Source: an uncultured Campylobacterales bacterium
GTDB taxonomy: Bacteria; Campylobacterota; Campylobacteria; Campylobacterales; CAZCQG01
Reading direction: 5' to 3'
NCBI GenBank assembly: GCA_964500775.1
Contig: CAZCQG010000007.1
Location: 2,179 to 66,178, forward strand
Length of the DNA stretch: 64,000 bases
The position numbers and the translations under genes are program-made. Positions 12,024 through 60,073 of the stretch are shown here, piece by piece; position 1 is the stretch's first letter, and each line of letters starts with the position of its first letter. The notes beneath the pieces were generated by a model, which made no database searches, was not told where the DNA came from, and saw only the letters and a list, made by a program, of their open reading frames with translations.

Positions 12024-13991
12024 CTAGAGTACGCAGGTTTGTATTTTTGCGACGATACTCGGGTCTTCGAGAGTGGAGGTGTCTTGATTGATCGCTTCCC
12101 CTTTTGCGATGGAGCGTAAGATTCTTCGCATAATCTTACCGCTTCTTGTTTTCGGGAGACCGGGGACGAATTTTATATCATCTGCCTTTGCGATCGGTCC
12201 TATCTCTTTTGTGATGACTTGGTTTATCTCTTTATAGAGCTCCACTTCCTCTGCAGCATTGTCTTTGACTTCAGGTTTGAGTACGACGTATGCAAATACC
12301 GATTCCCCTTTGAGATCGTTTGGTTTGCCTACTACGGCGACTTCGGCTACGCTTGGGTGCTTGGCGATGGCTGATTCTATCTCCGCCGTACCCATTCTAT
12401 GACCGCTTACGTTGATGACGTCATCTACCCGTCCCGTGATAGTGATGTAGCCGTCTTCGTCGTATATCGCTCCATCTCCGGAGAAGTATACGGGTTTTCC
12501 GTCTTTTTTGCACGTACCGAAATAGCTACTTTGGTATCGCTCGGGATCACCCCAAATGTTTCGAATCATACTTGGCCAAGGCTTGGTGATGCAGAGATAC
12601 CCTTTTTCATCGATCGCTTTTGGATTCCCTTCTTCGTCGATGATCTCCGCGATGATACCCGGTAGCGGCATCGTAGCACACCCAGGTTTGATAGGAGTGG
12701 CTCCGGGGAGCGGGCTAATCATATGTCCGCCCGTTTCGGTTTGCCACCAAGTATCCACGATAGAGCATCTGCCGCCGCCGATTTCGTTGTAGTACCACAT
12801 CCATGCATCAGGGTTGATAGGCTCCCCTACGGTACCGAGAATCTTGAGTGAAGAGAGATCGTATTTCGCGGGCTCCTCTTTTCCTTCTTTGTGGAGTAAT
12901 CGAATAGCTGTCGGCGCAGTGTAGAATTGATTGACCTTGTACTCCTCTATCATTCTCCACCATCGACCCGCATCGGGATAAGTAGGCACCCCTTCAAACA
13001 TTACCGTCGTAGCACCGCACGCCAACGGACCGTAAACGATATAGGTGTGTCCGGTGATCCAACCCACGTCCGCAGTACACCAATAGGTGTCGTTCTCTTT
13101 CATATCAAACACCCATTCCATTGTGGTTTGTGCCCAAAGGATGTAGCCTGCTTGGTTGTGTTGCACCCCTTTTGGTTTCCCTGTAGAACCTGAAGTATAA
13201 AGCAAGAAGAGCGGGTCTTCGCTATCCATTGCTTCGGGCTCGCAATAGGGTTTTTCTAGCCCAACAAGCTCTTCATAAAGATAGTCACGTCCCGGAACAT
13301 AGTTTATCTCTTGTTTATTTCTCGTCACGATGAGTACTTTTTTAACCGAATCACAGTCCTTGGAGAGCGCCTCGTCTACGACGTGTTTAAGCATATACGG
13401 TTTTCCGCGTCTAAATGCACCGTCAGCGGTGATGACGAGTTTCGCTTGGGCGTCGATGATCCTATCGCGCAACGCTTCGGCACTAAAACCGCCGAAAACC
13501 ACCGAGTGGATAGCGCCAATTCTCGCGCATGCGAGCATCACAAACGCTGCTTCGGGAATCATAGGCATATAGATAACGACCCTATCCCCTTTTTTGATGT
13601 CGAATTTATTTTTGAGCATATTTGCGGTTTTGTTTACTTCGTAATAGAGTTCGCGATACGTAATGACTTGTTTGTCTCCGAGTTCCCCTTCGAAGATAAT
13701 CGCCGCTTTGTTTTTTCTCGATTCTAGGTGTCTATCGATACATTGTACGGAGACGTTCATTTTTCCGCCGTTGAACCACTTGTAAAACGGAGCGTTGCTC
13801 TCATCAAGTACGGTGTGGTACGGCGTCATCCAACTTATCTTCTCATCCGCCAATTTTGCCCAAAAGCCTTCATAATCTTCAGAGGCTTGCAGTGCAAGCT
13901 CTTTATATTCACACATATTTTTTATATTTGCCTCTTTGGCAAAAGCCCTATTTGGCTCAAAAATCGGTTTTTTGTGTAGTTCGCTCATCAA
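12024..13991 (-). CDS. acs: acetyl-CoA synthetase
   Basis: AMP-binding motif [20 protein letters not shown]-terminal SGKIMRR; 655 aa. Confidence 0.97.
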
Positions 13992-14048: not shown

Positions 14049-14666
14049 CTAAGCTCTCAAACTCTTTACGCTCTGTAACTTCACATACATCATCGCAGTC
14101 ATTAGCGCGTCGTTATATGCACTATGTTTTCCTAAAGAGGGTATCTTTAAATCCTCCATTATAGTATCAAACCTGAGGTCAATATTTCCTTGCGGAATTA
14201 GTTCTATTTTCTTATCGTAATAGAGAGCCGATAGCTCTATCGCCTTGTTAGGCAGGGCAAAGCCGAAAAGGGGTTTGATTGTTTTGTTGATCATCGCGAT
14301 GTCAAACTCCAAATAATATCCTAGTAAAGGGCGATTTCCTATAAAGTCTAAAAACAGCTCCATCGCATCTTTTTTTTCCATCCCCTCTTTGAGGTCTATT
14401 TCGCGTATATGGTGAATTTTTATACTCTCACTACTCACCTCTCTCTCCGTTTTTATGAGGATACTTAGTTTTTGACTCGCTAGAATCTTATTTCCTTTGA
14501 TTTTGATAGCCCCTATGGATATGATCTCGTCTTCTTTGGGATTGAGACCCGTCGTCTCACAGTCGAAGCTGACTACTTCCTCGCCTCTGTATTTTTCAAA
14601 AAGGGCTTTATGCTTCTCTTCTTTTATCCTCCTTTTGTAGTAGAGATTCCTAAGCGTATTGACCAT
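14049..14666 (-). CDS. DEDDh 3'-5' exonuclease (DnaQ/epsilon-like), copy 1
   Basis: ExoI FDCETTGL, ExoII-like YYLEFDIAMIN, ExoIII HSAYNDA; ATG abuts the stop of the upstream DUF294 gene (TAAATG). Confidence 0.85.
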   Translation of the reverse strand: MVNTLRNLYYKRRIKEEKHKALFEKYRGEEVVSFDCETTGLNPKEDEIISIGAIKIKGNKILASQKLSILIKTEREVSSESIKIHHIREIDLKEGMEKKDAMELFLDFIGNRPLLGYYLEFDIAMINKTIKPLFGFALPNKAIELSALYYDKKIELIPQGNIDLRFDTIMEDLKIPSLGKHSAYNDALMTAMMYVKLQSVKSLRA

Positions 14667-16496
14667 TTAGCTCACCATATTGAGTTTAAAATGGTATGTG
14701 ACGTATTTTTTGAACCTATCGACTATCTTAAAAACATCCCGCAATAAATCTCGCTCAAACTTGCTTATCTCGCTCGGGTTGATGTAGTTGTCCGCATCGT
14801 GTTTGAGTGAGATCATATTGAGTTGGTGTTGGAGTCGCAACGTCAATAAAAAAGTAAACGCTTCAATGAGCTCGGTGGAGAAGATCCTCTCAAGTATTCC
14901 CATATTATTGAGTTCTTTGATTCTTTCGATGGTGTTAGTGCTTTTGCATTTTTTTTCTAATGCCAAACTTCTGATGCCGTGTACGATGGGGAAAATCGCC
15001 CCTTTTTTGATGTCAAGCTTGTCTTTGTGTTGGTCTTTTTCGGTGACAAAGTTGGAAAATAGAGACAAAGGGGTCTCAAAAATAATCGTAGCTTTCGCGA
15101 AATGTGCGAAAAATCCTTTGTTGTCGTCTATATAGGGGTAGATCTTCTCTTTGAGATCATCCAAAAGACTCTTCTCGCCTGCGACAAAAGAGGCATCGAA
15201 TAAAATTGCCAGATTCATAATATTGTTCCCGCTTGGATCTGCTATCCACGTGGCGATGTCTTGATGAAAGCTTTTTTGATCTTTGCGCCATAGCGGATTG
15301 TTTATCATAATACCGCCGCTACAAGCAGGGAATCCAAAATCAATTAAAGCGGCGTTGAATTTGTTCGCAAAATTCTCAATGTCTGCATAATTGTAGCCGT
15401 CTTTGATGATGAGTGCATTATCTTGATCGGTGCGAAGCGTTTGCTCTTTTCTCCCCTCGCTACCTAGGACGATGAGTGCCGAGTTGTCGATAAGCTCTTT
15501 TGGCGCAAGCAACTCAAAGAGCCGCTTATAAATTTTTGCGTTGAGATCGGAGAGGAGTTTGGTGATATGGCGCACCTTTACGCCGTGTTGCTGCAGTGAT
15601 TTGATGAGGTAGATGATATTGCTGCTCGCCACTTTGAGTTCATCGAGATTCTTCGCTCGTAAGATTTGCATATTTGAGAGATGCGCTTTTGAGGAGACGG
15701 CGCTTAGGAGATCCACCTGCTCCAAAATGCCTATAATATCTCCCCCTTCGGTTACCGCAAGACGCTGAATGTTGTTCTCTATCAAGAGCAAAAGAGCGTT
15801 AAATAAAAAATCCGACGCTTTGACGCTTATGAGTTTTTTTATCGCGATAGAGCCTATGGGCGCATCGTAATCTCTATTTTGGAGTATCACCTTTTCTCTC
15901 AAATCGGTATTCGTAACGATACCGAAACCTCCGTCGTCAAAGGAGACGATCAGCGAATCGCTCCCGTTTGCGGACATAATCTTTACTCCTGAAAGTATCG
16001 ATTCTCTTTCGTTGATAAAAAAGGGATCACGTAGGTGGATGTCCTCGACTTTTGTCGCCATAAAAGTCGCCGCTTCTTTATTCGAATCCCGCTCCAATAA
16101 TGCGTGCATTTTTTTTGAGATGTCGGCGAGATAATAGCTTTCAAATGCGCTATCGGTTTGTAGTAGTTTGGTAAAAAACTCTTTTTTTATACAGAAACAG
16201 ATCGCCTCTTCGGCGCAAATATATCCGTTTATATACTTGTTTTGGAGTATGGAGGCGGCATCGAAACTATCTTTTTTAGTCAAGATTCCGACGTTATCTT
16301 CGGCATCTATCTCTTTGATGGCACCTTTGCCTATGATGACGTAGTATTCGGGCTCGCTCCCGATTTTTGCAACCGTATCGTTTTTTTTGAAATATAGAAT
16401 GTCGAGGTTGGATAATGTTTCTTCAAACACGCTGCCGTGTAAAGTATTAAAAGGTTCAATAGATGATAGAAAACTTCTATAGTCTAGTGTTTCCAA
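14667..16496 (-). CDS. cNMP-binding / CBS-pair / DUF294-type nucleotidyltransferase signalling protein, copy 1
   Basis: cNMP-binding-like N-terminus, CBS region, pol-beta NTase motif GSEGRKEQTLRTDQDNA, C-terminal helical substrate-binding region; TTG start. Confidence 0.8.
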   Translation of the reverse strand: METLDYRSFLSSIEPFNTLHGSVFEETLSNLDILYFKKNDTVAKIGSEPEYYVIIGKGAIKEIDAEDNVGILTKKDSFDAASILQNKYINGYICAEEAICFCIKKEFFTKLLQTDSAFESYYLADISKKMHALLERDSNKEAATFMATKVEDIHLRDPFFINERESILSGVKIMSANGSDSLIVSFDDGGFGIVTNTDLREKVILQNRDYDAPIGSIAIKKLISVKASDFLFNALLLLIENNIQRLAVTEGGDIIGILEQVDLLSAVSSKAHLSNMQILRAKNLDELKVASSNIIYLIKSLQQHGVKVRHITKLLSDLNAKIYKRLFELLAPKELIDNSALIVLGSEGRKEQTLRTDQDNALIIKDGYNYADIENFANKFNAALIDFGFPACSGGIMINNPLWRKDQKSFHQDIATWIADPSGNNIMNLAILFDASFVAGEKSLLDDLKEKIYPYIDDNKGFFAHFAKATIIFETPLSLFSNFVTEKDQHKDKLDIKKGAIFPIVHGIRSLALEKKCKSTNTIERIKELNNMGILERIFSTELIEAFTFLLTLRLQHQLNMISLKHDADNYINPSEISKFERDLLRDVFKIVDRFKKYVTYHFKLNMVS

Positions 16497-16624
16497 AAAA
16501 ATAGTCTCCGCATTTCTATTAGTATTTCTTATTCTATTTTTACTTCATAGCATAAGCGTAGCAAACTAAAAATACCGCAATAAAAAAGGTGAAAAATGTA
16601 GATCGTGTGTAGAATCTAAACATT

Positions 16625-16648
16625 ATTCACGAGGAAACCCTCGTGAAT
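16625..16648 (-). terminator. perfect 10-bp hairpin immediately after actP
   Basis: ATTCACGAGG-AAAC-CCTCGTGAAT, 2 nt after the actP stop; weak U-tract, so it could be a terminator, attenuator or processing site. Confidence 0.5.
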
Positions 16649-16650
16649 AC

Positions 16651-18309
16651 TTAATGCGAGGATGCCCCCTCTGCTCCGATACCTGTTTGAGAACGGACAT
16701 ATTGTGCTTCGAAATCATCTTTCTCTTTTTGTGCGTTATCACTCTTATCCGTGATAGAAAATAGCCAAATACCGACAAACGCTACGGTGACCGAGAACAG
16801 CGCAGGGTATTTGTACGGGAACGGAGCCGAACCTGCAGGATTGCCCATAACCGCTTCCCAGACCGTCGGGCTTAGGATAACGAGTATTACCGCCGTTGCA
16901 AGACCCAAGCTACCGCCGATAACTGCACCTCTTGTGGTGAGCTTGCTCCAAAACATCGAAAGGAAAAGAATCGGAAAGTTTGCAGATGCCGCGATAGCAA
17001 ATGCAAGCCCCACCATAAAGGCGATGTTTTGCTTTTCAAACGCGATTCCGAGGAATATCGCGATAATACCTAGTGCAACCGTAGTGATTTTAGAAACTCT
17101 CACTTCGCTCATCTCATCCGCCTCACCTTTTTTTAGGACGCTTGCATATAAGTCGTGTGAAATAGCGGAAGCACCTGCGAGTGTGAGTCCTGATACAACA
17201 GCCAAAATAGTCGCAAACGCAACCGCGGATATGAATCCAAGGAACATACTTCCCCCTACCGCGTCCGCTAAATGGATAGCTGCCATATTGTTTCCGCCCA
17301 TTATTTTGCCTGCCGCATCAAGATATGCGGGGTTTTGTGACACAAGGACGATAGCGCCGAAGCCGATAACAAACGTCAAGATATAGAAATATCCGATAAA
17401 GCCCGTCGCATAGAAGACAGATTTTCTCGCCTCTTTTGCATCCGCAACGGTAAAAAATCTCATAAGGATATGCGGAAGTCCCGCCGTACCGAACATAAGC
17501 GCGATACCGAGCGAGATAGCCGAGATAGGATCGCTCACCAAGCCTCCGGGAGCCATAATAGAATCGCCACCCGTATGTGTTTCTATTGCTTTTGTAAAGA
17601 GCGTCTCAAGGCTGAAGCCCATCATATAGAGTACCGCCAAAGCCATAAACGTAGCACCCGAGAGGAGGAGTACGGCTTTGATGATTTGTACCCAAGTGGT
17701 CGCTAGCATTCCGCCGAATGTGACGTAGAGAATCATAAGTACCCCGACGATAACGACCGCATATTCGTACGGCAGACCGAAAAGGAGTTGGATAAGTTTT
17801 CCCGCACCTACCATTTGCGCGATGAGGTAGAGGATGACCGTGGCGATAGAGCCAAGTGCCGCCAATGTTCTAATAGGCATTTGTCTTAGTCTATAGCTTG
17901 CGACATCGGCAAAGGTATATTTACCGAGATTTCGAAGTTGCTCGGCTATGAGGAAGAGGATGATAGGCCATCCGACTAGGAAACCTATGGAATATATAAG
18001 ACCATCGTATCCTTTGAGGTATACGAGACCTGAAATTCCCAAAAAGCTTGCCGCAGACATATAGTCGCCCGCGATTGCCAAGCCGTTTTGAAAGCCGGTG
18101 ATTCCGCCGCCGGCAGTATAGAAATCTTTTGCCGTTTTTGTTCTTTTGGCTGACCAGTAGGTGATCCCGAGTGTCGCAGCGACAAAGAGAAGGAACATAA
18201 TGATAGCCGAGGAGTTCACCTCTTGTTTTTGTACTTCGCCGCTGATGGCATCTGCCCCGAAGGCAAACGTGGCAAGAAAAATAAGTGCTAGCGTAACAAT
18301 ACTTTTCAT
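16651..18309 (-). CDS. actP: cation/acetate symporter (SSS family)
   Basis: 552 aa, about 14 TM helices, preceded by a DUF485 gene as in yjcH-actP. Confidence 0.92.
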
Positions 18310-18312
18310 CCC

Positions 18313-18618
18313 TTACTCCTTTATACTTTGTTTGATATTGTGGGTGAGTTCGTCAAATTCGGTATTGGCTCTTTTGACATAAATGCCCGTCAAGGCGAAT
18401 GCAAATATGATTACCCCGATACCTACGGGAATCCCTAGTGTAATCACTCCGCTGATTTTCGCCGCAAATAGGCTCGGGGCGAAAGCGATAATAAGTATAA
18501 ATAGGTAATAAACTACCAACATAGCAATCGATAGTTGCCATGCAAACTTGCTTCTTTTTGTAACAAGTTCATTGAATTTCGGGTTGCTTTTGATCTTAGC
18601 AACAAGCGCTTTATCCAT
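18313..18618 (-). CDS. DUF485 (YjcH-like) inner membrane protein
   Basis: Two-TM protein directly upstream of actP; start set at MDKALV, preceded by AAGGAG. Confidence 0.85.
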   Translation of the reverse strand: MDKALVAKIKSNPKFNELVTKRSKFAWQLSIAMLVVYYLFILIIAFAPSLFAAKISGVITLGIPVGIGVIIFAFALTGIYVKRANTEFDELTHNIKQSIKE

Positions 18619-18721
18619 GTTCACTCCTTGTAATATTATTGACACGAAGCTATTGTATGGGATGAAAATAGCGTGAATATAGCAATGGAGAAATAGTCGT
18701 ATTTAAGCGTAAAAAAAAGAT

Positions 18722-19339
18722 TTATGTGGGAAGTTTTGAAACATTTTGAAGTTTTATGTACATAAGCGCGGTCATAATAGCATCATTGAGCGCATCGTGC
18801 TTTCCCAAAACAGGGAGGTTGAGATCTTTTAGGATCGAATCAAACCGCAGATCTACGATTCCTTGGGGAATGAAGCCGATTTTTTTATCGTGATAGATCG
18901 CCGAAACCTCTATTTGTTTATTGGGCAGAGTGATGCCGAGTCTCTTCTTGAGGTATTTATTGATCATCGCTATGTCAAACTCTAGATAGTAGCCCACAAG
19001 CGTTCTATTGCCGATAAATTCCAAGAAGTCTTCCAATACTCCATCTAGCTCTTCGGCATCATGCAAATCACACTCCCGTATCATATGCACCTTGATGCTT
19101 GTCTCGTTGAGCTTCCCTTTGGGTTTTACAAATCGTTGGAATTTACTTTCGCTTAGGATTCTGTTTCCCCGCACTTTTACCGCGCCGATAGAGATAATAT
19201 CGTCCTTTTTGGGATCCAATCCCGTAGTCTCCGTGTCAAAAACCACCACTTCATCCCCGTCATAAGGTGCAAAAAGGTAGTCGTATTTTGGATCGGTGAG
19301 TTTGCGTCTATTGAGCCGACGTGCAAATTTTTCAAACAT
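18722..19339 (-). CDS. DEDDh 3'-5' exonuclease (DnaQ/epsilon-like), copy 2
   Basis: FDTETTGL, YYLEFDIAMIN, HDALNDA; ATG at 19339 overlaps the upstream stop (ATGTTTGA). Confidence 0.85.
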   Translation of the reverse strand: MFEKFARRLNRRKLTDPKYDYLFAPYDGDEVVVFDTETTGLDPKKDDIISIGAVKVRGNRILSESKFQRFVKPKGKLNETSIKVHMIRECDLHDAEELDGVLEDFLEFIGNRTLVGYYLEFDIAMINKYLKKRLGITLPNKQIEVSAIYHDKKIGFIPQGIVDLRFDSILKDLNLPVLGKHDALNDAIMTALMYIKLQNVSKLPT

Positions 19340-21170
19340 ATTCAAGTTTGTATCTCGCAATGAGAAATTTTTTAAAACGATTGACTACTTTGAAAGCGTC
19401 TTTGAGCATATCTTTGTCGATCGTACGCAAAGAATCGGGGTTAATATAGTTGTCCGCCAAAGAGCCCGTATCTATTTTTTGGAGGCTTGTGCGGAGTTTT
19501 AACGTATGAAAATAGTTAAAAGATTCAATAAGCTCCCCCGCGAATTCTTTATCCAAGATTCCGAGGTTATTTAGCGCTTTTATCCGCAAAACCGTATTTG
19601 TCTCCGCAAGGGCATTTTCAAGTGCCAAGGTTCGTATCCCGTGCACGATAGGAAATACCCCGCCTTTTTTGAGGTCAAGTTCATTTTTGTGTTTATTCTT
19701 GTCTACTTTGAAATCGCTAAAAAGCCCGATGGGTGTGGGGAACAAAAGGGCGAACGAACCGAAAGTGTTTAAGAACGCGGTGTTTTTTTCTATTTTTGCA
19801 AATACTACCGTTTTGAGCTCTTGGAGGAGTTTGGGATCGCCCGCGATACAGTATGCGTCAAAAAATATCGCAAGATTCATAAAGTCGTCCCGATCTTTTC
19901 TATTGACCCACTGGAGGAGCTGTTCGCTAAACTGCGTAAATCTTTTTCTCCATAAAGGATTATTTACCATAATATCCCCCTCGCATTTGGGGTAGCCGAA
20001 ATCACAAAGCGCTTCGCTAAACCTTTCGCAAAATTCGGCAATGACGGTATCGTCAAACGGACACGAATCGGCAATTATCAGCGCATTGTCTTGATCGGTA
20101 CGCAATATCTGCTCACCTCGCCCCTCGCTTCCCATCACAAGTAGTGCGGTGTGTGCTTCAAGACCTTTGGGTGCGAGCAGAGTAAAAAGTTTTTCAAAGA
20201 GTTTTCGATTGAGTTCGCTTAGGAGTTTAGAGATGTAGCGGACTTTCACCCCTTGGGCGAAGAGGGCTTTGATGATTCTTATAAATTTGACACTTGCCGC
20301 TTTGAGCTCCGCTAGGTCACGCGCTCGTTCTATCTCGTTTGCGATGGCATAGGTGTGAGATGAGAAAAAACTTGTGAGTGACATTTGGTCTAAGATTCCG
20401 ATTATCTCCCCTATTTTATTTTTGACGACGAGCCTTTTTATGCCGTAGCGTGTCATAAGGAGTTGAGCGTTAAATAAAAAATCATCCTCTAAAACGCTCT
20501 TTAGCCCAAACGTGGTGATGTGCTCCACTTTGGCATCGAAACTAAGACGCTCTAAAATTACCTTTTCTCTAAAATCGGTATCCGTAGCGATACCGAACTC
20601 TTCCCCTTTTTTTACGAGTATCGAAGTAAGCGAATGACTTTTCATAGTACGTACGGTCTCGTATATCGATTCGCTTGCGTCTACAGAGTAGGGCTTTTGG
20701 ATGTATGCGTCGCTCACTTTGGCGATCATAAAGCTTGCAAGCTCTTTATTTTGGGTGGTTGCGAGATTTTCGCTCAATTTCTCCGAAATGCTTTGGAAGA
20801 AAAAATGCTCTATTTTTTTGTTTTGATGGAGGATTTTTAAAAAGATCTCTTGGGGTAAGAGGTAGCAGATACTCTCCTCTAATGCTTTGAATCTGTTTTT
20901 GATTCTCCGCTCTATTAATGAGAGGGGATCAAAGAAGGCGTGCTTTTCAAGGATAGATACGTTCTCGTCCGCTTCGGATGCTAGCTCTTGTACTTTTCCT
21001 TTGATGATGAAATAGAGGAAATGCTCTTGCGTGTTTGAATCAAGAATATATTGCCCTTGCTTAAAATACTCAATTGAGAGATTGTTGCACAGCATCTCGA
21101 TTTCACGATCTTCAAGTGCGTCGAATGGAGGAATGGAGAGGATAAAACTTTTTTGCTCATGAAAGCTCAT
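19332..21170 (-). CDS. cNMP-binding / CBS-pair / DUF294-type nucleotidyltransferase signalling protein, copy 2
   Basis: Same architecture as copy 1; NTase motif GSEGRGEQILRTDQDNA; start set at MSFHEQ, preceded by GGAGG. Confidence 0.8.
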   Translation of the reverse strand: MSFHEQKSFILSIPPFDALEDREIEMLCNNLSIEYFKQGQYILDSNTQEHFLYFIIKGKVQELASEADENVSILEKHAFFDPLSLIERRIKNRFKALEESICYLLPQEIFLKILHQNKKIEHFFFQSISEKLSENLATTQNKELASFMIAKVSDAYIQKPYSVDASESIYETVRTMKSHSLTSILVKKGEEFGIATDTDFREKVILERLSFDAKVEHITTFGLKSVLEDDFLFNAQLLMTRYGIKRLVVKNKIGEIIGILDQMSLTSFFSSHTYAIANEIERARDLAELKAASVKFIRIIKALFAQGVKVRYISKLLSELNRKLFEKLFTLLAPKGLEAHTALLVMGSEGRGEQILRTDQDNALIIADSCPFDDTVIAEFCERFSEALCDFGYPKCEGDIMVNNPLWRKRFTQFSEQLLQWVNRKDRDDFMNLAIFFDAYCIAGDPKLLQELKTVVFAKIEKNTAFLNTFGSFALLFPTPIGLFSDFKVDKNKHKNELDLKKGGVFPIVHGIRTLALENALAETNTVLRIKALNNLGILDKEFAGELIESFNYFHTLKLRTSLQKIDTGSLADNYINPDSLRTIDKDMLKDAFKVVNRFKKFLIARYKLEYV

Positions 21171-21380
21171 AGGAAACCTCCGTGTAAATATGGAAGTGTA
21201 ACACACGAAAAATTATGTTACTAAAATATACAGCGCTATATTGATGCTACACTACTGTAACATTTTGTAGCATTGAGATTCAATTTCTCGGTGAATTTTC
21301 ACATTTTTGTCAAATGCTATGTTCATGCTACGTTTGGAGAATACTATAAAAAGTGTGAAAAAATTACAGAAGGAGTGTTT

Positions 21381-54995: not shown

Positions 54996-56792
54996 GTGTA
55001 TTTTTCAAAAACAACCATTGAATGCGAAAACGTAACCAAGGCAATTAGCGAATTTGCAAAGCAAAATCAGATTAAAACGCACGAAATTGACTATAAGCTA
55101 CTAGAATACAACACCCTCTACAAAAAGAACACGGGAGATCTTACACGGGATTTCAGCACCCTTAGCGAAGAGGAACAAGAGGAGATTGCGCGCACCGAGG
55201 CGCTTATTTGGCAAACCTACAAGATAGAGCTTTATCCCGCAGAAAGAATCCGACACGACATCATCATACTTTCATTCGTAAGCGATAAATACCAAACCTC
55301 TCTTAGTGCTATCGTGAGTAAAAGCTCCAAGATATATCTTTGTGACGAGCTAGAAGAAGAGCTGTATGAGTTTTTTATCAAAAAAAAGCTTTCCATGTCG
55401 GTGATGATAGGGGTTTTTGATCCGCTGTTTCAGATGAGCATCGATGATTTGGCTCAAGAGGTGCGTGAGCACAAAAAACTTACCAAAGATTTTACGATAA
55501 AAATGGCGCACTTTCCCGCTCCCGTGATGCCTAGGGATGATGCGATAATTTTTCGTTACTTGGATTCTAAAAAGTACACCAGAAAAGGGGATAAGCGACT
55601 TTACTACGTAAATCAAGGAAGCATACTCATCGAATACATCGGACCAAAGGAGGGGAAAAACGGTCGCGATTACAGAGGGGAGGGTGTGCACACTCCTTTA
55701 CCTAAGAAAGAACATCTCATTAAGTATAGACTCGGAAGCGGCGTAGAGGAAGTGCCCACCGAAGACGGTTTTACTTATGTTTCAAAAAATGAAGGATATG
55801 TGACTATCGAAGAGGGGAGAATTGATGTCGATAATGAGCTCTCGTTGCAACAAATATCGCAAAAAGAGACGGGCTCGATAGATTTTGGCGTAGATTCCGA
55901 GATGGAGATCGACGTGAGCTTAAGTGATGCCGCCTTGGAGGCAGTCGATAGCAGTATGGTCGTGAAAAGCAATCGTCTCAACGTAGCGGGAAACGTAGCG
56001 CAAGGAGCGCATATAGAGACTCGTTCGGTAAAAATTGACGGGCAAACGCATAAAGATTCTTTTGTGAAGTCGGATGAAGCACTTATTAATATTCATAGAG
56101 GATATTTTGAGGGCAGTACCGTAAAAATAAATAAGCTTGAAGGAGGGTTCGTCAAAGCCGATTATGTAGAGATAAACGACGGGCTTCGAGGAGAAATCAA
56201 GGGGAAAGAGGTGAAAGTGACCAACCTCTTTCCGGGGGTAAAAATATTTGCTTCATCGAGCATCTACGTGCAAAACTTCAAAAATGAAGGGGCAAGCCTC
56301 GTCATTGATTACGATCTCAACGAGATAGAAGGCGAAAATATCGAATCATTGTTAAAGAATATCGAGAATTATGAAAATGACAAAATAAAACTCGCCGAGA
56401 AAATAAAAAGGCTTGATTTTCTCGTAAATAGAGATTTTGCCTTAGTGAAAGGCGAGATAGAAAAATACAAAAAAATTCACGGTTTTATCCCCGAGGGTTT
56501 AAAAAGAAGACTTGCCGCTACTAAAGAAAAAAATATGGAGCTTAATAGCCTCAATAATTCCTACACCGAGGTATCTTCAAAAAGCGCCGATTCTAAGCGA
56601 AAAATCACCGCATTGAAAGACGGAATAGAGCAGTGCAACGTCGCATCTAACGGAAATTGGGGGAAGCTTACTTTTGTCTCTTTTGTTTCAAAAGCGTTTG
56701 GTTTTACATTGCGAATCAAAGCGAGGCAGGGTGATTTGAAATATGCGCTGGCAAAAGACGGTGCGGGTTATAAGATAATTCGAGCCGAGTAA
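54996..56792 (+). CDS. FapA/DUF342-like protein (flagellar assembly protein A family)
   Basis: 598 aa. The central region has a repetitive beta-helix-like pattern (NVAGNVAQGAHIETRSVKIDG...VKINKLEGGFVKADYVEIND...), followed by a coiled coil. Family call made by eye only. Confidence 0.5.
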   Translation: MYFSKTTIECENVTKAISEFAKQNQIKTHEIDYKLLEYNTLYKKNTGDLTRDFSTLSEEEQEEIARTEALIWQTYKIELYPAERIRHDIIILSFVSDKYQTSLSAIVSKSSKIYLCDELEEELYEFFIKKKLSMSVMIGVFDPLFQMSIDDLAQEVREHKKLTKDFTIKMAHFPAPVMPRDDAIIFRYLDSKKYTRKGDKRLYYVNQGSILIEYIGPKEGKNGRDYRGEGVHTPLPKKEHLIKYRLGSGVEEVPTEDGFTYVSKNEGYVTIEEGRIDVDNELSLQQISQKETGSIDFGVDSEMEIDVSLSDAALEAVDSSMVVKSNRLNVAGNVAQGAHIETRSVKIDGQTHKDSFVKSDEALINIHRGYFEGSTVKINKLEGGFVKADYVEINDGLRGEIKGKEVKVTNLFPGVKIFASSSIYVQNFKNEGASLVIDYDLNEIEGENIESLLKNIENYENDKIKLAEKIKRLDFLVNRDFALVKGEIEKYKKIHGFIPEGLKRRLAATKEKNMELNSLNNSYTEVSSKSADSKRKITALKDGIEQCNVASNGNWGKLTFVSFVSKAFGFTLRIKARQGDLKYALAKDGAGYKIIRAE

Positions 56793-56850
56793 AAATAAAA
56801 ATAAACTTAATAATATTTCTTTTTCTATCAATATAAAATAGATTTATAAA

Positions 56851-56866
56851 GGTACTATTTTTGCTT
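56851..56866 (+). promoter_or_regulatory. sigma54 (RpoN)-like -24/-12 promoter
   Basis: GGTACTATTTTTGCTT: GG and GC separated by 10 nt as in TGGCAC-N5-TTGCW; -12 element reads TTGCTT; 26 nt from the GC to the ATG at 56890. Confidence 0.5.
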
Positions 56867-56889
56867 CTCCTCCGTTTCGGAGGTGTAAA

Positions 56890-57885
56890 ATGAAAATAGC
56901 GTCTCATAGTTTTACGACGTATGCCGAGCATACACTTTTGGAATCTTCAACCACGAGTTTTTCCCTCGGAAAGTTCTCTTTCGGTAATATGATCGAAACG
57001 GAACAGAGTGGATTTGACGACATAAAAACAATCGGTGAGAAACTCAAAATCTCATTAGTTTTTGAGCTTTTACAGGCTCTCGGTAGGGAGGGCGGAGAAG
57101 AGATAAAGAACTATTACGGCGAGCATGAGGATTTGCTACGCAACGCACAAAAATTGAAGAGCGGTGTGCCAACGGAAGCCCCCGTCTCGTTACTGTCGAG
57201 TTTTTTTGAATCGGTGCAGAAGTTTAGCGAAAAAATAGAGACCAAGATACAAGGCAAAGTGTATACGGAAGATGGACGCGAGATTGTCATCAATGCCGAT
57301 TTGCGGCTTTCACAATCTTTTTACGCGAAAATTGAAAAAAGCGCAGCGTTTATAGACCCGCTTGTCATCACGTTTGACGGAAAACTCCCTGAGCTTGACG
57401 GTACGAAATTTTCGTTCGATATAGATTGCGACGGTGAAAAAGACCAAATAAGCAGGCTGGTCAAAGGGAGCGGCTTTTTAGCGCTCGATAGAGACGGCAA
57501 CGGAAAAATCGACGACGGTTCGGAGCTTTTCGGGACAAAAAGCGGCGATGGATTTGAGGAATTACGCACGTTTGATGAAGACGGGAATGAGTGGATAGAT
57601 TCCGGAGATTCGGTATTTGATAGATTGCGAATCTGGTCAAACGACGAGGGTGAGAGTAGACTGATCGCTCTTGGAGAAGCGGGTATCGGCGCGATATATC
57701 TCGGCGGCGTGAATGCGGAGTTTGGATATAGAAGCAGCAACGGAGCCGCACTGGGGCAACTTCGTAAAAGCGGTGTTTTTTTATATGAGGACGGCAGGAT
57801 AGGCAATGTCTCTCAAGTAGATTTTGCAAAAGAGGGCGAATCTAGCGAGGGATTTGGATTAAAGAGTATGTTGGAGCAGATATAA
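56890..57885 (+). CDS. DxDxDG calcium-binding repeat protein, paralog A
   Basis: 331 aa; FDIDCDGEKD, LDRDGNGKIDDGSELFG, FDEDGNEWIDSGD loops; no Sec signal peptide apparent; GGAGG Shine-Dalgarno. Confidence 0.7.
   Translation: MKIASHSFTTYAEHTLLESSTTSFSLGKFSFGNMIETEQSGFDDIKTIGEKLKISLVFELLQALGREGGEEIKNYYGEHEDLLRNAQKLKSGVPTEAPVSLLSSFFESVQKFSEKIETKIQGKVYTEDGREIVINADLRLSQSFYAKIEKSAAFIDPLVITFDGKLPELDGTKFSFDIDCDGEKDQISRLVKGSGFLALDRDGNGKIDDGSELFGTKSGDGFEELRTFDEDGNEWIDSGDSVFDRLRIWSNDEGESRLIALGEAGIGAIYLGGVNAEFGYRSSNGAALGQLRKSGVFLYEDGRIGNVSQVDFAKEGESSEGFGLKSMLEQI
57475..57545 (+). repeat. 71-bp perfect inverted repeat, arm 1 (inside paralog A)
   Basis: Hand alignment: exact reverse complement of 58200-58270. 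Confidence 0.9.
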
Positions 57886-57892
57886 AACGGTA

Positions 57893-57912
57893 CGGCGGGA
57901 GCTACCCCGCCG
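57893..57912. terminator. bidirectional GC hairpin between the convergent paralogs
   Basis: CGGCGGG-AGCTAC-CCCGCCG, 7-bp stem; overlaps the last codons of paralog B. Confidence 0.55.
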
Positions 57913-58789
57913 CCATATCTATGTGGTAGATTCCCCCGCTAAATCTATCATCGGTAAAATCTATCGCCGCACTTTTTTGTAGCATCCCCGCTAAATTTCC
58001 TTTGCCGTCATACAGCGCTTCTTGCGTTTTAAAAGCATTGAGGTAAATCACCCCCACACCCGCTTCGCCTAGCCCGATAAGCGAATCTTCCCCGTTGTCG
58101 TTCTTTTTCCAGATTCGTAATTTATCGTAAATGAAGTCTTCGGTATCTATTTTGCCGTCCTTGTTTGTGTCGTACATTGAGAGGTCTAAAAAGCCATCCC
58201 CGCTTTTTGTCCCGAAAAGCTCCGAACCGTCGTCGATTTTTCCGTTGCCGTCTCTATCGAGCGCTAAAAAACCGCTTCCGCGTTTCAAAAGCGAGATCTG
58301 ATCGCTACGTCCGTCGCTATCGAGGTCGAATGTAAATTTTTGATCGGATAATTCCGCACCTTTTCCATCGAAATTCACCACGAGGGGGTCAATGAGTTTC
58401 GTCTTCTCTAGTTCTTTGTCTTCATAGATTCCTATCTTTCGTAAGAGCGATTCGCTGATATTTATGAGAATCTCGCTATTAAAATTCCCATCGGTCGCGG
58501 TAATCTCTAGGTCGATGACGGTTTGTCTGATATTTTCGACGTATACCGTCTTGCTATCCCCTTTATCGAGAGCTTCGAGCAGAATGTCGGAGGATTCTTT
58601 TTTGATTGCCTTTAGTCTTTGAAGCGTCTTGTCGAGAAGGCTTTTTTCAAAAGTGTCACGTGATTCTTTGAGGCTGTTCGACGTGCTTGTTTGCGGTGCC
58701 TCTACCGCTTGTGTATTCGCTACCGAGGCGTTTTTTGTTACGACCTCTAAACTTATGCTGACTTCCGAAAAACGTGCAGAAATATCCAT
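57902..58789 (-). CDS. DxDxDG calcium-binding repeat protein, paralog B
   Basis: 295 aa; FDLDSDGRSD, LDRDGNGKIDDGSELFG, YDTNKDGKIDTED loops; no Sec signal peptide apparent. Confidence 0.7.
   Translation of the reverse strand: MDISARFSEVSISLEVVTKNASVANTQAVEAPQTSTSNSLKESRDTFEKSLLDKTLQRLKAIKKESSDILLEALDKGDSKTVYVENIRQTVIDLEITATDGNFNSEILINISESLLRKIGIYEDKELEKTKLIDPLVVNFDGKGAELSDQKFTFDLDSDGRSDQISLLKRGSGFLALDRDGNGKIDDGSELFGTKSGDGFLDLSMYDTNKDGKIDTEDFIYDKLRIWKKNDNGEDSLIGLGEAGVGVIYLNAFKTQEALYDGKGNLAGMLQKSAAIDFTDDRFSGGIYHIDMAAG
58200..58270 (-). repeat. 71-bp perfect inverted repeat, arm 2 (inside paralog B)
   Basis: Exact reverse complement of 57475-57545. Confidence 0.9.
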
Positions 58790-58856
58790 AACAAATCCTT
58801 TTGTTGAGGTTCGACATCCTTGTCGTTATCGTGTGATGTAAATTGTGAGTGAGGAT

Positions 58857-58884
58857 ATATCGGGTAAAACGGAAAAAAAATTTA
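58857..58884 (-). promoter_or_regulatory. sigma28 (FliA)-like promoter
   Basis: Minus strand reads TAAA-N17-CCGATAT (consensus TAAA-N15/16-GCCGATAA); the -10 element lies about 68 nt upstream of the paralog B ATG. Confidence 0.45.
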
Positions 58885-58894
58885 GCGGATGATG

Positions 58895-60073
58895 TTAGTC
58901 GTGTTTTTTTATGATCCCAAGCCACTCTTTGAGCTTTTTCTCAAACCCGATGTCGCTTAGCTCTACGACTTTAAACCTTTCGTCAACGTATTTTTGCTCC
59001 ACCCAGCCGCCGAAATCGTGTGGATAAAGATAGTTTTCATTGAAATGAGTAATGTTCTTTGGGGTGTCGTATATTTCGCCGTTTCTGATTCTAGCTTGTG
59101 CGCTTTTTATCGCTTTGTAGGCGGTGTTGGATTTTGGGGAGGCACATAGGTAGAGGGCGCACTCCGAGAGGAGGATACTCGCTTCGGGATAGCCTATTTT
59201 GCTCACACTTAGCATACAAGAGGTGGCGAGATTGAGAGCGTTTGGATTTGCAAGACCGATGTCTTCGGCGGCGAGTATTGTGAGGCGTCTAGCGATGAAT
59301 TCGGGATTCTCCCCACATTCGATGAGGCGGGCGAGGTAGTAGATCGCTGCATCGGGGTCGCTGCCGCGGATGGACTTGATAAGTGCACTCGCAAGGTCGT
59401 AGTGGGTATCATCCTCGCTGCTCCCTTCACTCAAAGAAAATGGGCGGATTCTTTTGAGGTCGGCGAGGGTAGGGGTATTTGATAGTTTTGAGCTGAACTC
59501 TAAGAGATTGAGCATGGCACGTGCATCTCCGTTGCTGCTTTCCAAAAGGTAAGTATACGCATCATCTCCTATCTGAATACCAAATTTTGACAGCGCGTTA
59601 TCGAGAATTTGTCCTAAGTGTCTTTTTGTAAGTTTTTTAAACTCAAAGAGTAAGATTCTAGAACGCAAAGCTTGCGTGAGCGAGAAAAACGGATTTTCGG
59701 TCGATGCGCCGATGAGGGTGATAATATTTTCTTCAAGGATGGGCAATAAAACCTCTTGCTGGTTTTTCGAGAGTCTATGTATCTCGTCAATAAATATTAG
59801 CGGTTTTAAGAGCGAGCCGCCTTGGGCTATTTTGCGTATCTCTTCGACTTTGATACTCGTCGCATTCAGATAGCTGATAGGTTGCCCTAATGATTCTGCG
59901 GCGAGTTTGGCTAGGGTCGTTTTTCCCGTCCCGGGAGGTCCGTAAAGTATGGCGTGCGGAAAAATGGAGGAATCGATGAACTTCTGAAAAACCCCGTCAT
60001 TTCCCACGAGATGTTCTTGCCCGATAAACTCTTCAAACCTCGTCGGTCTTAGGGCGCTTGCGATATTTGTCAA
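58895..60073 (-). CDS. rarA: replication-associated recombination protein A (AAA+ ATPase)
   Basis: [20 protein letters not shown], MgsA C-terminal region; apparent TTG start. Confidence 0.9.
   Translation of the reverse strand: MTNIASALRPTRFEEFIGQEHLVGNDGVFQKFIDSSIFPHAILYGPPGTGKTTLAKLAAESLGQPISYLNATSIKVEEIRKIAQGGSLLKPLIFIDEIHRLSKNQQEVLLPILEENIITLIGASTENPFFSLTQALRSRILLFEFKKLTKRHLGQILDNALSKFGIQIGDDAYTYLLESSNGDARAMLNLLEFSSKLSNTPTLADLKRIRPFSLSEGSSEDDTHYDLASALIKSIRGSDPDAAIYYLARLIECGENPEFIARRLTILAAEDIGLANPNALNLATSCMLSVSKIGYPEASILLSECALYLCASPKSNTAYKAIKSAQARIRNGEIYDTPKNITHFNENYLYPHDFGGWVEQKYVDERFKVVELSDIGFEKKLKEWLGIIKKHD

Follow-up and report, generated by a model that had tools for sequence, protein, structure and literature searches.

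A 71-nt stretch of DNA is identical in two otherwise diverged, convergent genes, and this patch is most probably the product of a recent short gene conversion or template switch between old paralogs, rather than a built-in DNA switch. The two genes, here called A and B, lie tail-to-tail and 16 nt apart in the window, the 64,000-nt stretch of DNA that was analyzed. Both include a self-processing module (SPM).

56890–57885, plus strand: gene A, an ORF of 331 aa with an N-terminal DUF8379-type region and a C-terminal FrpC-type SPM.
57902–58789, minus strand: gene B, an ORF of 295 aa encoding a stand-alone SPM protein of a subfamily other than that of A.

Both genes are full length, each with an ATG start codon, a ribosome-binding site, and a distinct N-terminal region. 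Precomputed Pfam matches for A are PF28292 and PF26745 (SPM). The two proteins are 45% identical over 248 aa, and each is nearer to relatives in other genomes than to its partner. The best relatives of A are DUF8379+SPM proteins of Sulfurimonas and Sulfurospirillum (about 40–54% identity), and those of B are a set of proteins with 45–55% identity (P0002–P0012). The N-terminal domains of A and B also differ. Judged by these comparisons, the two genes are ancient paralogs, each from its own subfamily. No conserved gene neighborhood hinting at function was found.

The first-pass annotation had reported a perfect inverted repeat within the two genes. Indeed, the exact 71-mer is found on both strands, where 57475–57545 (plus) is the exact reverse complement of 58200–58270 (minus) at 71 of 71 nt, in a codon phase common to both genes.

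57475–57545, plus strand: left arm, the proposed conversion tract in A, covering codons F196 to S218 plus 2 nt (located by repeat search, codon alignment, permutation, and pS).
58200–58270, minus strand: right arm, the proposed conversion tract in B, covering codons F174 to S196 plus 2 nt (located by repeat search and codon alignment).
57546–58199, no strand assigned: the 654-nt inter-arm segment, which holds both 3′ ends and a hairpin; recombination of the arms with crossover would invert this segment.

In A the tract opens 585 nt from the gene start and in B 519 nt, each time on the first position of a codon. These values were recomputed and agree with the first-pass annotation, as do the 654 nt between the arms, the match of 81 of 83 nt after extension, and the 112 and 98 codons that lie beyond the tract. 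A repeat search of the window yields one significant inverted-repeat pair at this locus, with wider arms of 90 nt (57466–57555 and 58190–58279) that are 96% complementary and have 634 nt between them. The 71-mer occurs in the window as these two copies only (0 matches in 100 shuffles) and exceeds every other exact repeat in the 64 kb, of whatever type, the runner-up being 19 nt. No further copies of the tract or additional SPM paralogs were found in the window. Codon alignment identifies a 30-residue peptide, GSGFLALDRDGNGKIDDGSELFGTKSGDGF, that is identical in A and B. Its codons carry four synonymous differences, all in edge Gly codons (57468, 57474, 57546, and 57552), and the inner 71 nt carry none.

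Synonymous divergence between the paralogs is zero in the tract and saturated in its flanks. By Nei–Gojobori counting, none of the 14.7 synonymous sites of the tract differs (pS = 0), and pS is 0.99 in the flank to the left and 0.74 in the one to the right. The zero value agrees with the earlier claim that every synonymous site in the tract is identical. Where the two proteins have the same amino acid, the same codon is used at 23 of 23 positions inside the tract versus 27 of 64 outside it (Fisher p = 2e-7). Nucleotide identity between A and B in the flanks is 52–57%, slightly below the 55–65% that had been estimated by eye.

Because the tract peptide is the most conserved of its family, one might attribute the identity to chance or to codon choices that converged because of protein constraint and codon bias. 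Against this, independent draws from the codon usage of the window would give 23 matching codons with a probability of about 2e-11, and the longest identical run in 20,000 mismatch permutations was 29 nt versus the 71 nt observed. Furthermore, when the tract motif was compared with 72 loci from other genomes, codon identity at positions with the same amino acid was 40%, and a median of 48 of 72 nt were identical. These three results leave chance or convergent codon choice with a vanishingly small probability, and this explanation was rejected. The assertion of the first-pass annotation that protein constraint alone is insufficient is upheld by the same codon-usage probability and cross-genome codon identity. 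Ordinary synonymous divergence of the motif is what the 72 loci display, and it indicates that protein constraint does not homogenize the DNA and that no nucleotide element is conserved across species.

A wider survey places the pair among other SPM genes. Two SPM genes occur in one of 172 other SPM loci (1.48 Mb), and that pair is tandem and has no common tract; a convergent SPM pair or an identical tract was not found among these loci, in which the other SPM genes are single-copy and have no partner arm. Two control pairs gave much shorter matches, with at most 10 exact nt in common for tandem SPM genes in locus L016 and at most 19 nt for the other duplicated module in the window. The locus with the nearest B ortholog (L086) has an unrelated convergent neighbor. 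Close relatives were not found for either protein, the best match being 55% identical in a homolog search with B and 42% identical for A in 185,579 species genomes. A degenerate search of metagenome contigs for the tract peptide gave 0 matches, a second metagenome scan returned relatives of 38–57% identity only, and an outgroup genome with the same gene pair was not found in the collections searched.

Four properties of an ectopic conversion tract are present at this locus: an identical run longer than background, synonymous homogenization inside the tract only, gene copies older than the tract, and no nucleotide conservation across species. Recent gene conversion had been offered earlier as one option, and it is well supported by synonymous sites that are saturated everywhere but in the patch and by the 40% codon identity elsewhere.

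The SPM of FrpC cleaves an Asp-Pro bond upon calcium binding (PMC7078468). Sequence profile and modeled fold assign an FrpC-type SPM to both A and B, which are small stand-alone proteins with a predicted calcium-triggered clip-and-link activity. The profile match to the FrpC SPM in PDB entry 6SJW has E = 9e-14 (B alone, 3.5e-6), and the AlphaFold model of A matches 6SJX/6SJW in Foldseek with E = 4e-9 and a target-normalized TM of 0.70 over 178 columns. An Asp-Pro pair stands at the N-terminal edge of the module in both A and B (alignments A1 and A2).

57355–57360, plus strand: predicted scissile bond of A, Asp156-Pro157, at the SPM start, invariant in a 24-sequence alignment.
58385–58390, minus strand: predicted scissile bond of B, Asp134-Pro135, read directly from the sequence and invariant in alignment A2.
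57487–57525, plus strand: predicted EF-hand-like calcium-binding loop DRDGNGKIDDGSE of A, placed by motif mapping, phmmer alignment to 6SJW, and the published module (PMC7078468).

Residues D156-P157 of A correspond to FrpC D414-P415, and the phmmer alignment of B to 6SJW begins at P135. The loop DRDGNGKIDDGSE, which is present in both genes, is the counterpart of FrpC D462-E474; the subsequent LFG corresponds to port residues L475 and G477. Second predicted EF-hand-like loops, DEDGNEWIDSGD in A and DTNKDGKIDTED in B, are equivalent to FrpC D499-D511. The tract encodes the most conserved segment of the SPM family, its EF-hand-like calcium loop, and the amino-acid affinities of the tract peptide reveal about equal resemblance to both subfamilies.

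A and B appear to share with FrpC and ApxIVA the same domain, as judged by sequence profile and fold, with Asp-Pro at its start and EF-hand-like loops. However, FrpC and ApxIVA are RTX exoproteins of >1000 residues, with GGxGxDxxx repeats and a signal for export by type I secretion, whereas A and B are 331 and 295 aa. No GGxGxD motif was found in A or B, RTX repeats are absent, and neither protein falls within the FrpC/ApxIVA class. Small stand-alone SPM proteins are very widespread, yet the experimental literature has the module in giant RTX toxins only, and a 2020 paper described it as exclusive to RTX proteins (PMC7078468). In this respect the gene pair is more interesting than the repeat, which is an ordinary event.

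We propose that a short, recent, and non-reciprocal transfer of DNA took place between these anciently diverged tail-to-tail paralogs. This transfer would have occurred by ectopic gene conversion, with either homologous recombination or a template switch at the replication fork as its route, and would have been seeded where A and B were already most alike. They are most alike in the tract segment because it encodes the most conserved peptide of the family, comprising the calcium loop and the LFG port residues. A transfer in this segment alters few or no amino acids and so would be tolerated, and the event was presumably neutral. From cross-genome motif comparisons, we estimate that the segment was probably only about 65–80% identical before the event. 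Classical RecA recombination works poorly on sequences so diverged, and initiation would thus need template switching or a rare homeologous event. The 71-nt identity would now be sufficient for occasional RecA-type recombination, such that rare 654-nt inversions may follow as a side effect, without the repeat having been selected as an inversion device. A single genome fits one recent neutral event or an identity that is repeatedly restored or selected alike, and the exact coincidence of the tract with the most conserved peptide formally leaves room for lineage-specific selection on nucleotides.

A template switch at this locus would resemble quasipalindrome correction, the process reportedly described by Ripley, Lovett and co-workers wherein a template switch at an imperfect inverted repeat rewrites a short stretch of one arm. 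This process yields perfect complementarity without long homology, and in the classical cases the arms are a few to tens of nucleotides apart. The likeness lies in a short patch of one arm being rewritten from the other arm. The difference lies in the spacer, which is 654 nt here and would require a switch across the replication fork.

The inverted tufA and tufB genes of Salmonella, which co-evolve by RecA-dependent conversion (PMC5485169), offer a published precedent for the proposed conversion. Inversion occurs in up to 50% of their conversion events (PMC6735719), and their concerted evolution has been described by Abdulkarim & Hughes 1996, Hughes 2000, Paulsson et al. 2017 (PMC5485169), and Brandis et al. 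2019 (PMC6735719). As proposed for A and B, these are inversely oriented paralogs with non-reciprocal conversion, in which the same recombination can invert the DNA between. However, the tuf genes are near-identical over 1185 nt (12 differences) and 762 kb apart, whereas A and B are about 52% identical apart from the 71-nt patch, their arms are 654 nt apart, and the event, read from sequence alone, would be homeologous.

Another option raised by the first-pass annotation was an invertible C-terminal swap. In this scenario the repeat is a maintained recombination site at which RecA, or a recombinase encoded elsewhere, flips the 654 nt and exchanges the final 112 and 98 codons without breaking the frame. 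Each N-terminal part would then be produced with the C-terminus and 3′ end of the partner gene, which would make the locus a gene-altering inverton. The geometry for such a swap is in place. The inverted repeats reside inside two opposite-strand CDSs, inversion would alter both, and because the arms are in the same codon phase the resulting chimeras would be in frame, with 317 and 309 aa. The long repeat, the 16-nt gene gap, and the tail-to-tail closeness represent three of four attributes enriched in gene-altering inversions (PMC9881135), and inversion often accompanies conversion between inverted repeats (PMC6735719). A nearby recombinase gene is also absent from some invertible regions in the literature.

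For a programmed or selected switch itself no support was found. Among published predictors of a genuine gene-altering inversion, the strongest is a 5′-truncated silent partner (PMC9881135), and none is present, as A and B are complete with their own start codons and ribosome-binding sites. No site-specific recombinase was recognizable among ORFs of at least 130 aa across the 64 kb, although one from outside the window could act in trans. The locus has a single significant repeat pair, and the arrangement is absent from the 172 other SPM loci. The exact chimeric A/B proteins are absent from a collection of about 15 billion proteins, and a homolog search with B gave no partial matches near 100% identity. 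Moreover, the assembly has the parental arrangement on either side of the tract. Identity to the own versus the other subfamily is 26 versus 16% for the N-terminal part of A and 47 versus 34% for its post-tract part, and the corresponding values for B are 24 versus 16% and 57 versus 46%. The retention of subfamily affinity in the N-terminal and post-tract parts indicates either a non-crossover patch or a parental orientation. A swap would also cover only the C-terminal two-thirds of a compact processing domain and not the N-terminal fragment that is released and cross-linked, and would thus generate little functional diversity. On balance we consider an invertible swap unlikely.

The hsdS invertons of Type I restriction-modification systems in Streptococcus pneumoniae, and the loci of Milman et al. 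2023 (PMC9881135), likewise carry close, in-frame inverted repeats in two opposite-strand CDSs. Those loci usually include a 5′-truncated silent partner and a recombinase encoded close by, often with several pairs of repeats, and their heterogeneity within populations has been demonstrated. In contrast, the A/B locus has two complete genes, a single repeat pair, no recognizable recombinase in the 64 kb, and no variant on record. The locus calls for caution in intragenic inverted-repeat screens, since it passes a threshold of a repeat of at least 22 nt in opposite-strand CDSs, yet is probably no programmed inversion.

As the first-pass annotation also suggested, the identity might alternatively be maintained because the nucleotides themselves act, for example as a 71-bp RNA duplex in read-through or antisense transcripts that couples A and B expression, or as a DNA site bound by protein. 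A hypothetical read-through RNA spanning 57420–58330 folds with a long stem (−414 kcal/mol, z = −15.7), but this fold follows from the repeat itself. The intergenic region holds a hairpin that the first-pass annotation had taken to be a terminator shared by both genes.

57892–57913, minus strand: GC-rich hairpin, the predicted B terminator, with 9 pairs (7 GC); a T-run comes after it on the minus strand alone, and it overlaps the last codons of B.

The hairpin between the genes is present as described. However, the T-run is on the minus strand only, and the hairpin is therefore predicted to terminate B alone. Transcripts of A, which meet no plus-strand T-run, might thus enter antisense B. Nevertheless, no Rfam family matches over 56500–59200. 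The nucleotides of the motif are not conserved in other genomes, where the SPM genes are single-copy and have no partner arm, and the tract edges coincide with unremarkable synonymous Gly sites and mark no structural boundary. We therefore regard a nucleotide-level function as very unlikely.

An error in assembly or polishing could also create such a pattern, if the arms were truly non-identical or if the orientation of the inner segment had been an arbitrary choice of the assembly program. All records of A and B come from one NCBI contig (69,867 bp), and k-mers of 71 nt or shorter would leave a de Bruijn graph unable to orient the inter-arm segment. On the other hand, the flanks are about 52% identical, so reads of at least 100 nt would not be mis-mapped between the arms, and a contig that runs through the repeat would imply read support. 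Both genes are also intact, with uninterrupted frames, proper ends, and a terminator, and the assembled orientation gives subfamily-congruent genes. These features render an artefact extremely unlikely.

With gene conversion or template switching as the favored origin of the tract, the locus represents a clean example of concerted evolution at sub-domain scale between otherwise saturated paralogs, and illustrates that a conversion patch creates a substrate for later rearrangement.

A bolder version of the inversion reading, which we find distinctly unlikely, holds that the 71-nt repeat is kept identical for a recombinase-independent, RecA-type flip of the 654 nt, which would re-pair differently regulated N-terminal payloads with alternative SPM halves and tails. 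Within this reading, A may have a sigma-54-type promoter and B a sigma-28-type promoter, and the module halves could differ in cleavage rate or calcium response. If true, the flip would constitute a new class of in-frame inverton in clip-and-link proteins. The candidate upstream of B is a weak lead, in that the sigma-28-like pattern has 7 matches in the window versus 4.9 expected and is not enriched. A candidate element also precedes A.

56851–56866, plus strand: candidate sigma-54-like element GGTACTATTTTTGCTT (GG-N10-GC), 24 nt upstream of the A start codon, weak.

This element is the sole match to its pattern in the window, where 0.25 matches are expected and at least one match occurs in 21% of shuffles. 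A similar sigma-54-like element is located upstream of an A-type ortholog in another locus (L026).

The convergent paralogous genes A and B face one another across a spacing of 16 nt.

56890-57885, plus strand, gene A, open reading frame of 331 amino acids
57902-58789, minus strand, gene B, open reading frame of 295 amino acids

A repeat search of the window identifies inverted arms in these genes at 57466-57555 and 58190-58279 (90 nt, 96% complementary). The arms contain an exact 71-mer that is found at only two sites in the window, 57475-57545 (plus) and 58200-58270 (minus). No other exact repeat in the 64 kb, of whatever type, exceeds 19 nt, and 100 shuffles of the window sequence gave no match to this tract. 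In the codon alignment, the tract begins at a first codon position in A, 585 nt from the gene start, and likewise in B, 519 nt from the start. A 30-residue peptide that encloses the tract (GSGFLALDRDGNGKIDDGSELFGTKSGDGF) is identical in A and B, and its DNA differs only by four synonymous Gly-codon changes at the peptide edges (57468, 57474, 57546, and 57552). The repeat search, 71-mer count, and codon alignment bear out all the numbers that the first-pass annotation gave for the tract. The flanks are indeed diverged, although the computed identity of 52-57% is somewhat lower than the 55-65% estimated there by eye.

Three calculations are concordant in showing that the identity of the tract is more than chance. 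Given the codon usage of the window, tabulated from 32 long open reading frames, independently chosen codons would agree at 23 positions in a row with a probability of ~2e-11. Among amino-acid-identical positions of the shared domain, the same codon is used at 23 of 23 inside the tract versus 27 of 64 outside (Fisher p = 2e-7). The longest identical run after shuffling the A/B mismatches was 29 nt in 20,000 permutations, versus the 71 nt observed. By the Nei-Gojobori method, the tract has no synonymous differences at 14.7 synonymous sites, and the flanks are saturated (pS of 0.99 on the left and 0.74 on the right). An assembly or polishing artefact is very improbable.

The two proteins are 45% identical across 248 residues; closer relatives of each are found elsewhere. 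A clusters with proteins of Sulfurimonas and Sulfurospirillum that combine DUF8379 with an FrpC-type self-processing module (SPM), and B with the Campylobacterales homologs P0002 to P0012 (45-55% identity). Thus, the duplication that gave A and B is old, and the tract arose long after it. No close relative of B was recovered from 5.8 billion protein clusters (best match 55% identity) or of A from 185,579 species genomes (best match 42%, Sulfurospirillum arcachonense). The tract peptide is encoded by no contig in a metagenome contig search, a further metagenome scan returned partial identities of 38-57% only, and none of 172 SPM loci holds a convergent SPM pair.

The motif matching the tract was extracted from 72 loci of other genomes, where the codon is that of the window in 40% (475/1185) of same-amino-acid positions and the median nucleotide identity to the window is 48/72. 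Two further paralog pairs served as controls. Tandem SPM genes of a Bacteroidota MAG, 64% identical, share a longest exact run of 10 nt. The second pair is a duplicated two-gene module in the window (14049-21206, minus strand), in which a PRK09145-type 3'-5' exonuclease precedes a DUF294 nucleotidyltransferase that also has cNMP-binding and CBS domains.

12024-13991, acetyl-CoA synthetase, adjoining the module
14049-16496, minus strand, exonuclease + DUF294 module, copy 1
16651-18309, acetate symporter, between the copies
18722-21206, minus strand, exonuclease + DUF294 module, copy 2

These copies have at most 19 exact nt in common and so lack a conversion tract; neither control pair has an identity tract comparable to that of A and B. 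Codon divergence in the 72 loci and the control pairs indicate that constraint on the protein does not make the DNA uniform and that no nucleotide-level element is common to the species. Judged from these sequences, the A/B tract identity is a within-genome event. Retention of the tract for a nucleotide- or RNA-level function is highly improbable: 56500-59200 contains no Rfam match, and the long stem into which a hypothetical read-through RNA folds is a consequence of the repeat itself. Only one strong hairpin lies between A and B, overlapping the stop codon and last codons of B.

57892-57913, hairpin between the convergent genes, T-run on the minus strand only

Since the T-run serves the B strand only, A is without an obvious intrinsic terminator of its own, and transcription from A past the hairpin into B is conceivable.

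A fixed crossover at the tract predicts that the post-tract part of each gene resembles the other subfamily. The N-terminal part of A is 26% identical to A-type versus 16% to B-type proteins, and its post-tract part 47% versus 34%. For B, identity to B-type versus A-type proteins is 24% versus 16% before the tract and 57% versus 46% after it. Because subfamily affinity is kept on both sides, the assembled orientation is parental and the patch reflects a non-crossover transfer. The best-supported reading is a short ectopic gene conversion between A and B, one of the alternatives offered in the first-pass annotation, given that synonymous homogenisation is confined to the tract between saturated flanks, the paralogs are old, and the motif DNA is diverged in other genomes. 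Probably the tract is a passive conversion patch, a further case of a familiar type of event and of modest interest.

The textbook case of conversion between inverted paralogs is tufA/tufB of Salmonella, where conversion is RecA-dependent (PMC5485169) and up to half of recombination events come with inversion (PMC6735719). A and B are likewise an inverted pair but, judging from orthologs, their segment was probably only 65-80% identical before the event, a divergence at which classical homologous recombination would have worked very poorly. A rare homeologous event would be as likely a route, and so would template switching from one inverted copy to the other at a replication fork. The template-switch idea rests on quasipalindrome correction. 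RecA-type exchange generally requires a few tens of nucleotides of identity, a length that the 71 nt now in place exceeds, so rare inversions of the inter-arm segment may arise as a by-product.

Maintenance of the tract as an invertible swap of the C-terminal parts, also proposed at first, is unsupported and unlikely. The inversion geometry was described correctly, with predicted in-frame chimeras of 317 and 309 amino acids. In the survey of Milman et al. (PMC9881135), real gene-altering inversions were enriched in long repeats, closely spaced CDSs, a gene orientation placing the repeats near each other, and, above all, asymmetry, with the 5' part absent from one partner. The locus displays the first three attributes but not asymmetry. 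The usual nearby recombinase is also missing: none is recognisable among window open reading frames of at least 130 amino acids, and the neighbours are housekeeping genes (FapA-like protein, RarA/MgsA, HspR, CbpA, a SLAC1-type channel, and fatty-acid synthesis genes). Neither exact chimera is present among ~15 billion proteins, a collection in which A and B occur once each, both from a single contig of 69,867 bp. Had a sister strain carried a chimera, the homolog search would have returned a near-100% partial match to B; it returned none, which counts against a swap. Moreover, exchange would affect only the C-terminal two-thirds of a compact calcium-stabilised processing domain plus the short A tail. 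The released N-terminal fragments would stay as they are, yielding little diversity at the risk of an ill-fitting chimeric domain.

The gene pair is more interesting than the repeat itself. Local Pfam and NCBIfam copies give only weak EF-hand matches, and the homolog search assigns the SPM (PF26745) to both proteins and DUF8379 (PF28292) additionally to A. A profile of 24 family members matches the Neisseria meningitidis FrpC module in the PDB (6SJW/6SJX, E = 9e-14), as does B as a single query (E = 3.5e-6). The AlphaFold model of A has pLDDT 83-96 across most of the SPM, and in the PDB it significantly matches 6SJX and 6SJW alone (E = 4e-9, target-normalised TM 0.70, 178 aligned columns). In FrpC, calcium binding leads to folding and to cleavage of Asp414-Pro415 at the module's own N-terminal edge, leaving on the freed N-terminal fragment a reactive aspartyl anhydride able to form cross-links with lysines in other proteins; the scissile bond is shielded by port residues L475 and G477 (PMC7078468). 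Alignments locate the invariant Asp-Pro at D156-P157 in A and D134-P135 in B. The tract encodes DRDGNGKIDDGSE, the counterpart of the EF-hand-like calcium site D462-E474, then LFG, the counterpart of L475 and G477. This is the best-conserved stretch of the entire family in the 24-member alignment.

At 295-331 amino acids (56890-58789), A and B are small stand-alone proteins without RTX repeats. The homolog search returned 3703 relatives, mostly of 300-500 amino acids, from Campylobacterota, Bacillota, Desulfobacterota, Gammaproteobacteria, and other groups. One of 285 amino acids (P0008), 57% identical to B, comes from a Trinity contig of a eukaryotic transcriptome assembly (EukProt) and is probably bacterial contamination. 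The predicted released fragment of A (residues 1-156; 56890-57357) has very long beta strands in the AlphaFold model (3-27, 103-126, and 131-146), with fair model confidence at both ends and weak, non-significant structural matches to beta-pore-forming toxins such as lysenin and Vibrio cytolysin.

Candidate promoter elements precede both genes.

56851-56866, plus strand, sigma-54-like element GGTACTATTTTTGCTT (GG-N10-GC), 24 nt before the start codon of A
58857-58884, minus strand, sigma-28-like TAAA-N18-CGATAT, intergenic, upstream of B

The sigma-54-like pattern occurs once in the window, against 0.25 expected, and 21% of shuffles contain one or more matches. GGAATAGCTTTTGCTT occupies the equivalent place upstream of an A-type ortholog in another genome (L026), as does AGAATAGATTTTGCTT upstream of the one in Sulfurospirillum arcachonense (L006). 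Together with the upstream FapA-like gene, these elements hint at flagellar co-regulation. The sigma-28-like candidate is weak because the window has 7 matches to its pattern versus 4.9 expected, which is no enrichment; CGAT-type elements also occur upstream of several orthologs (L005, L007, and L091).
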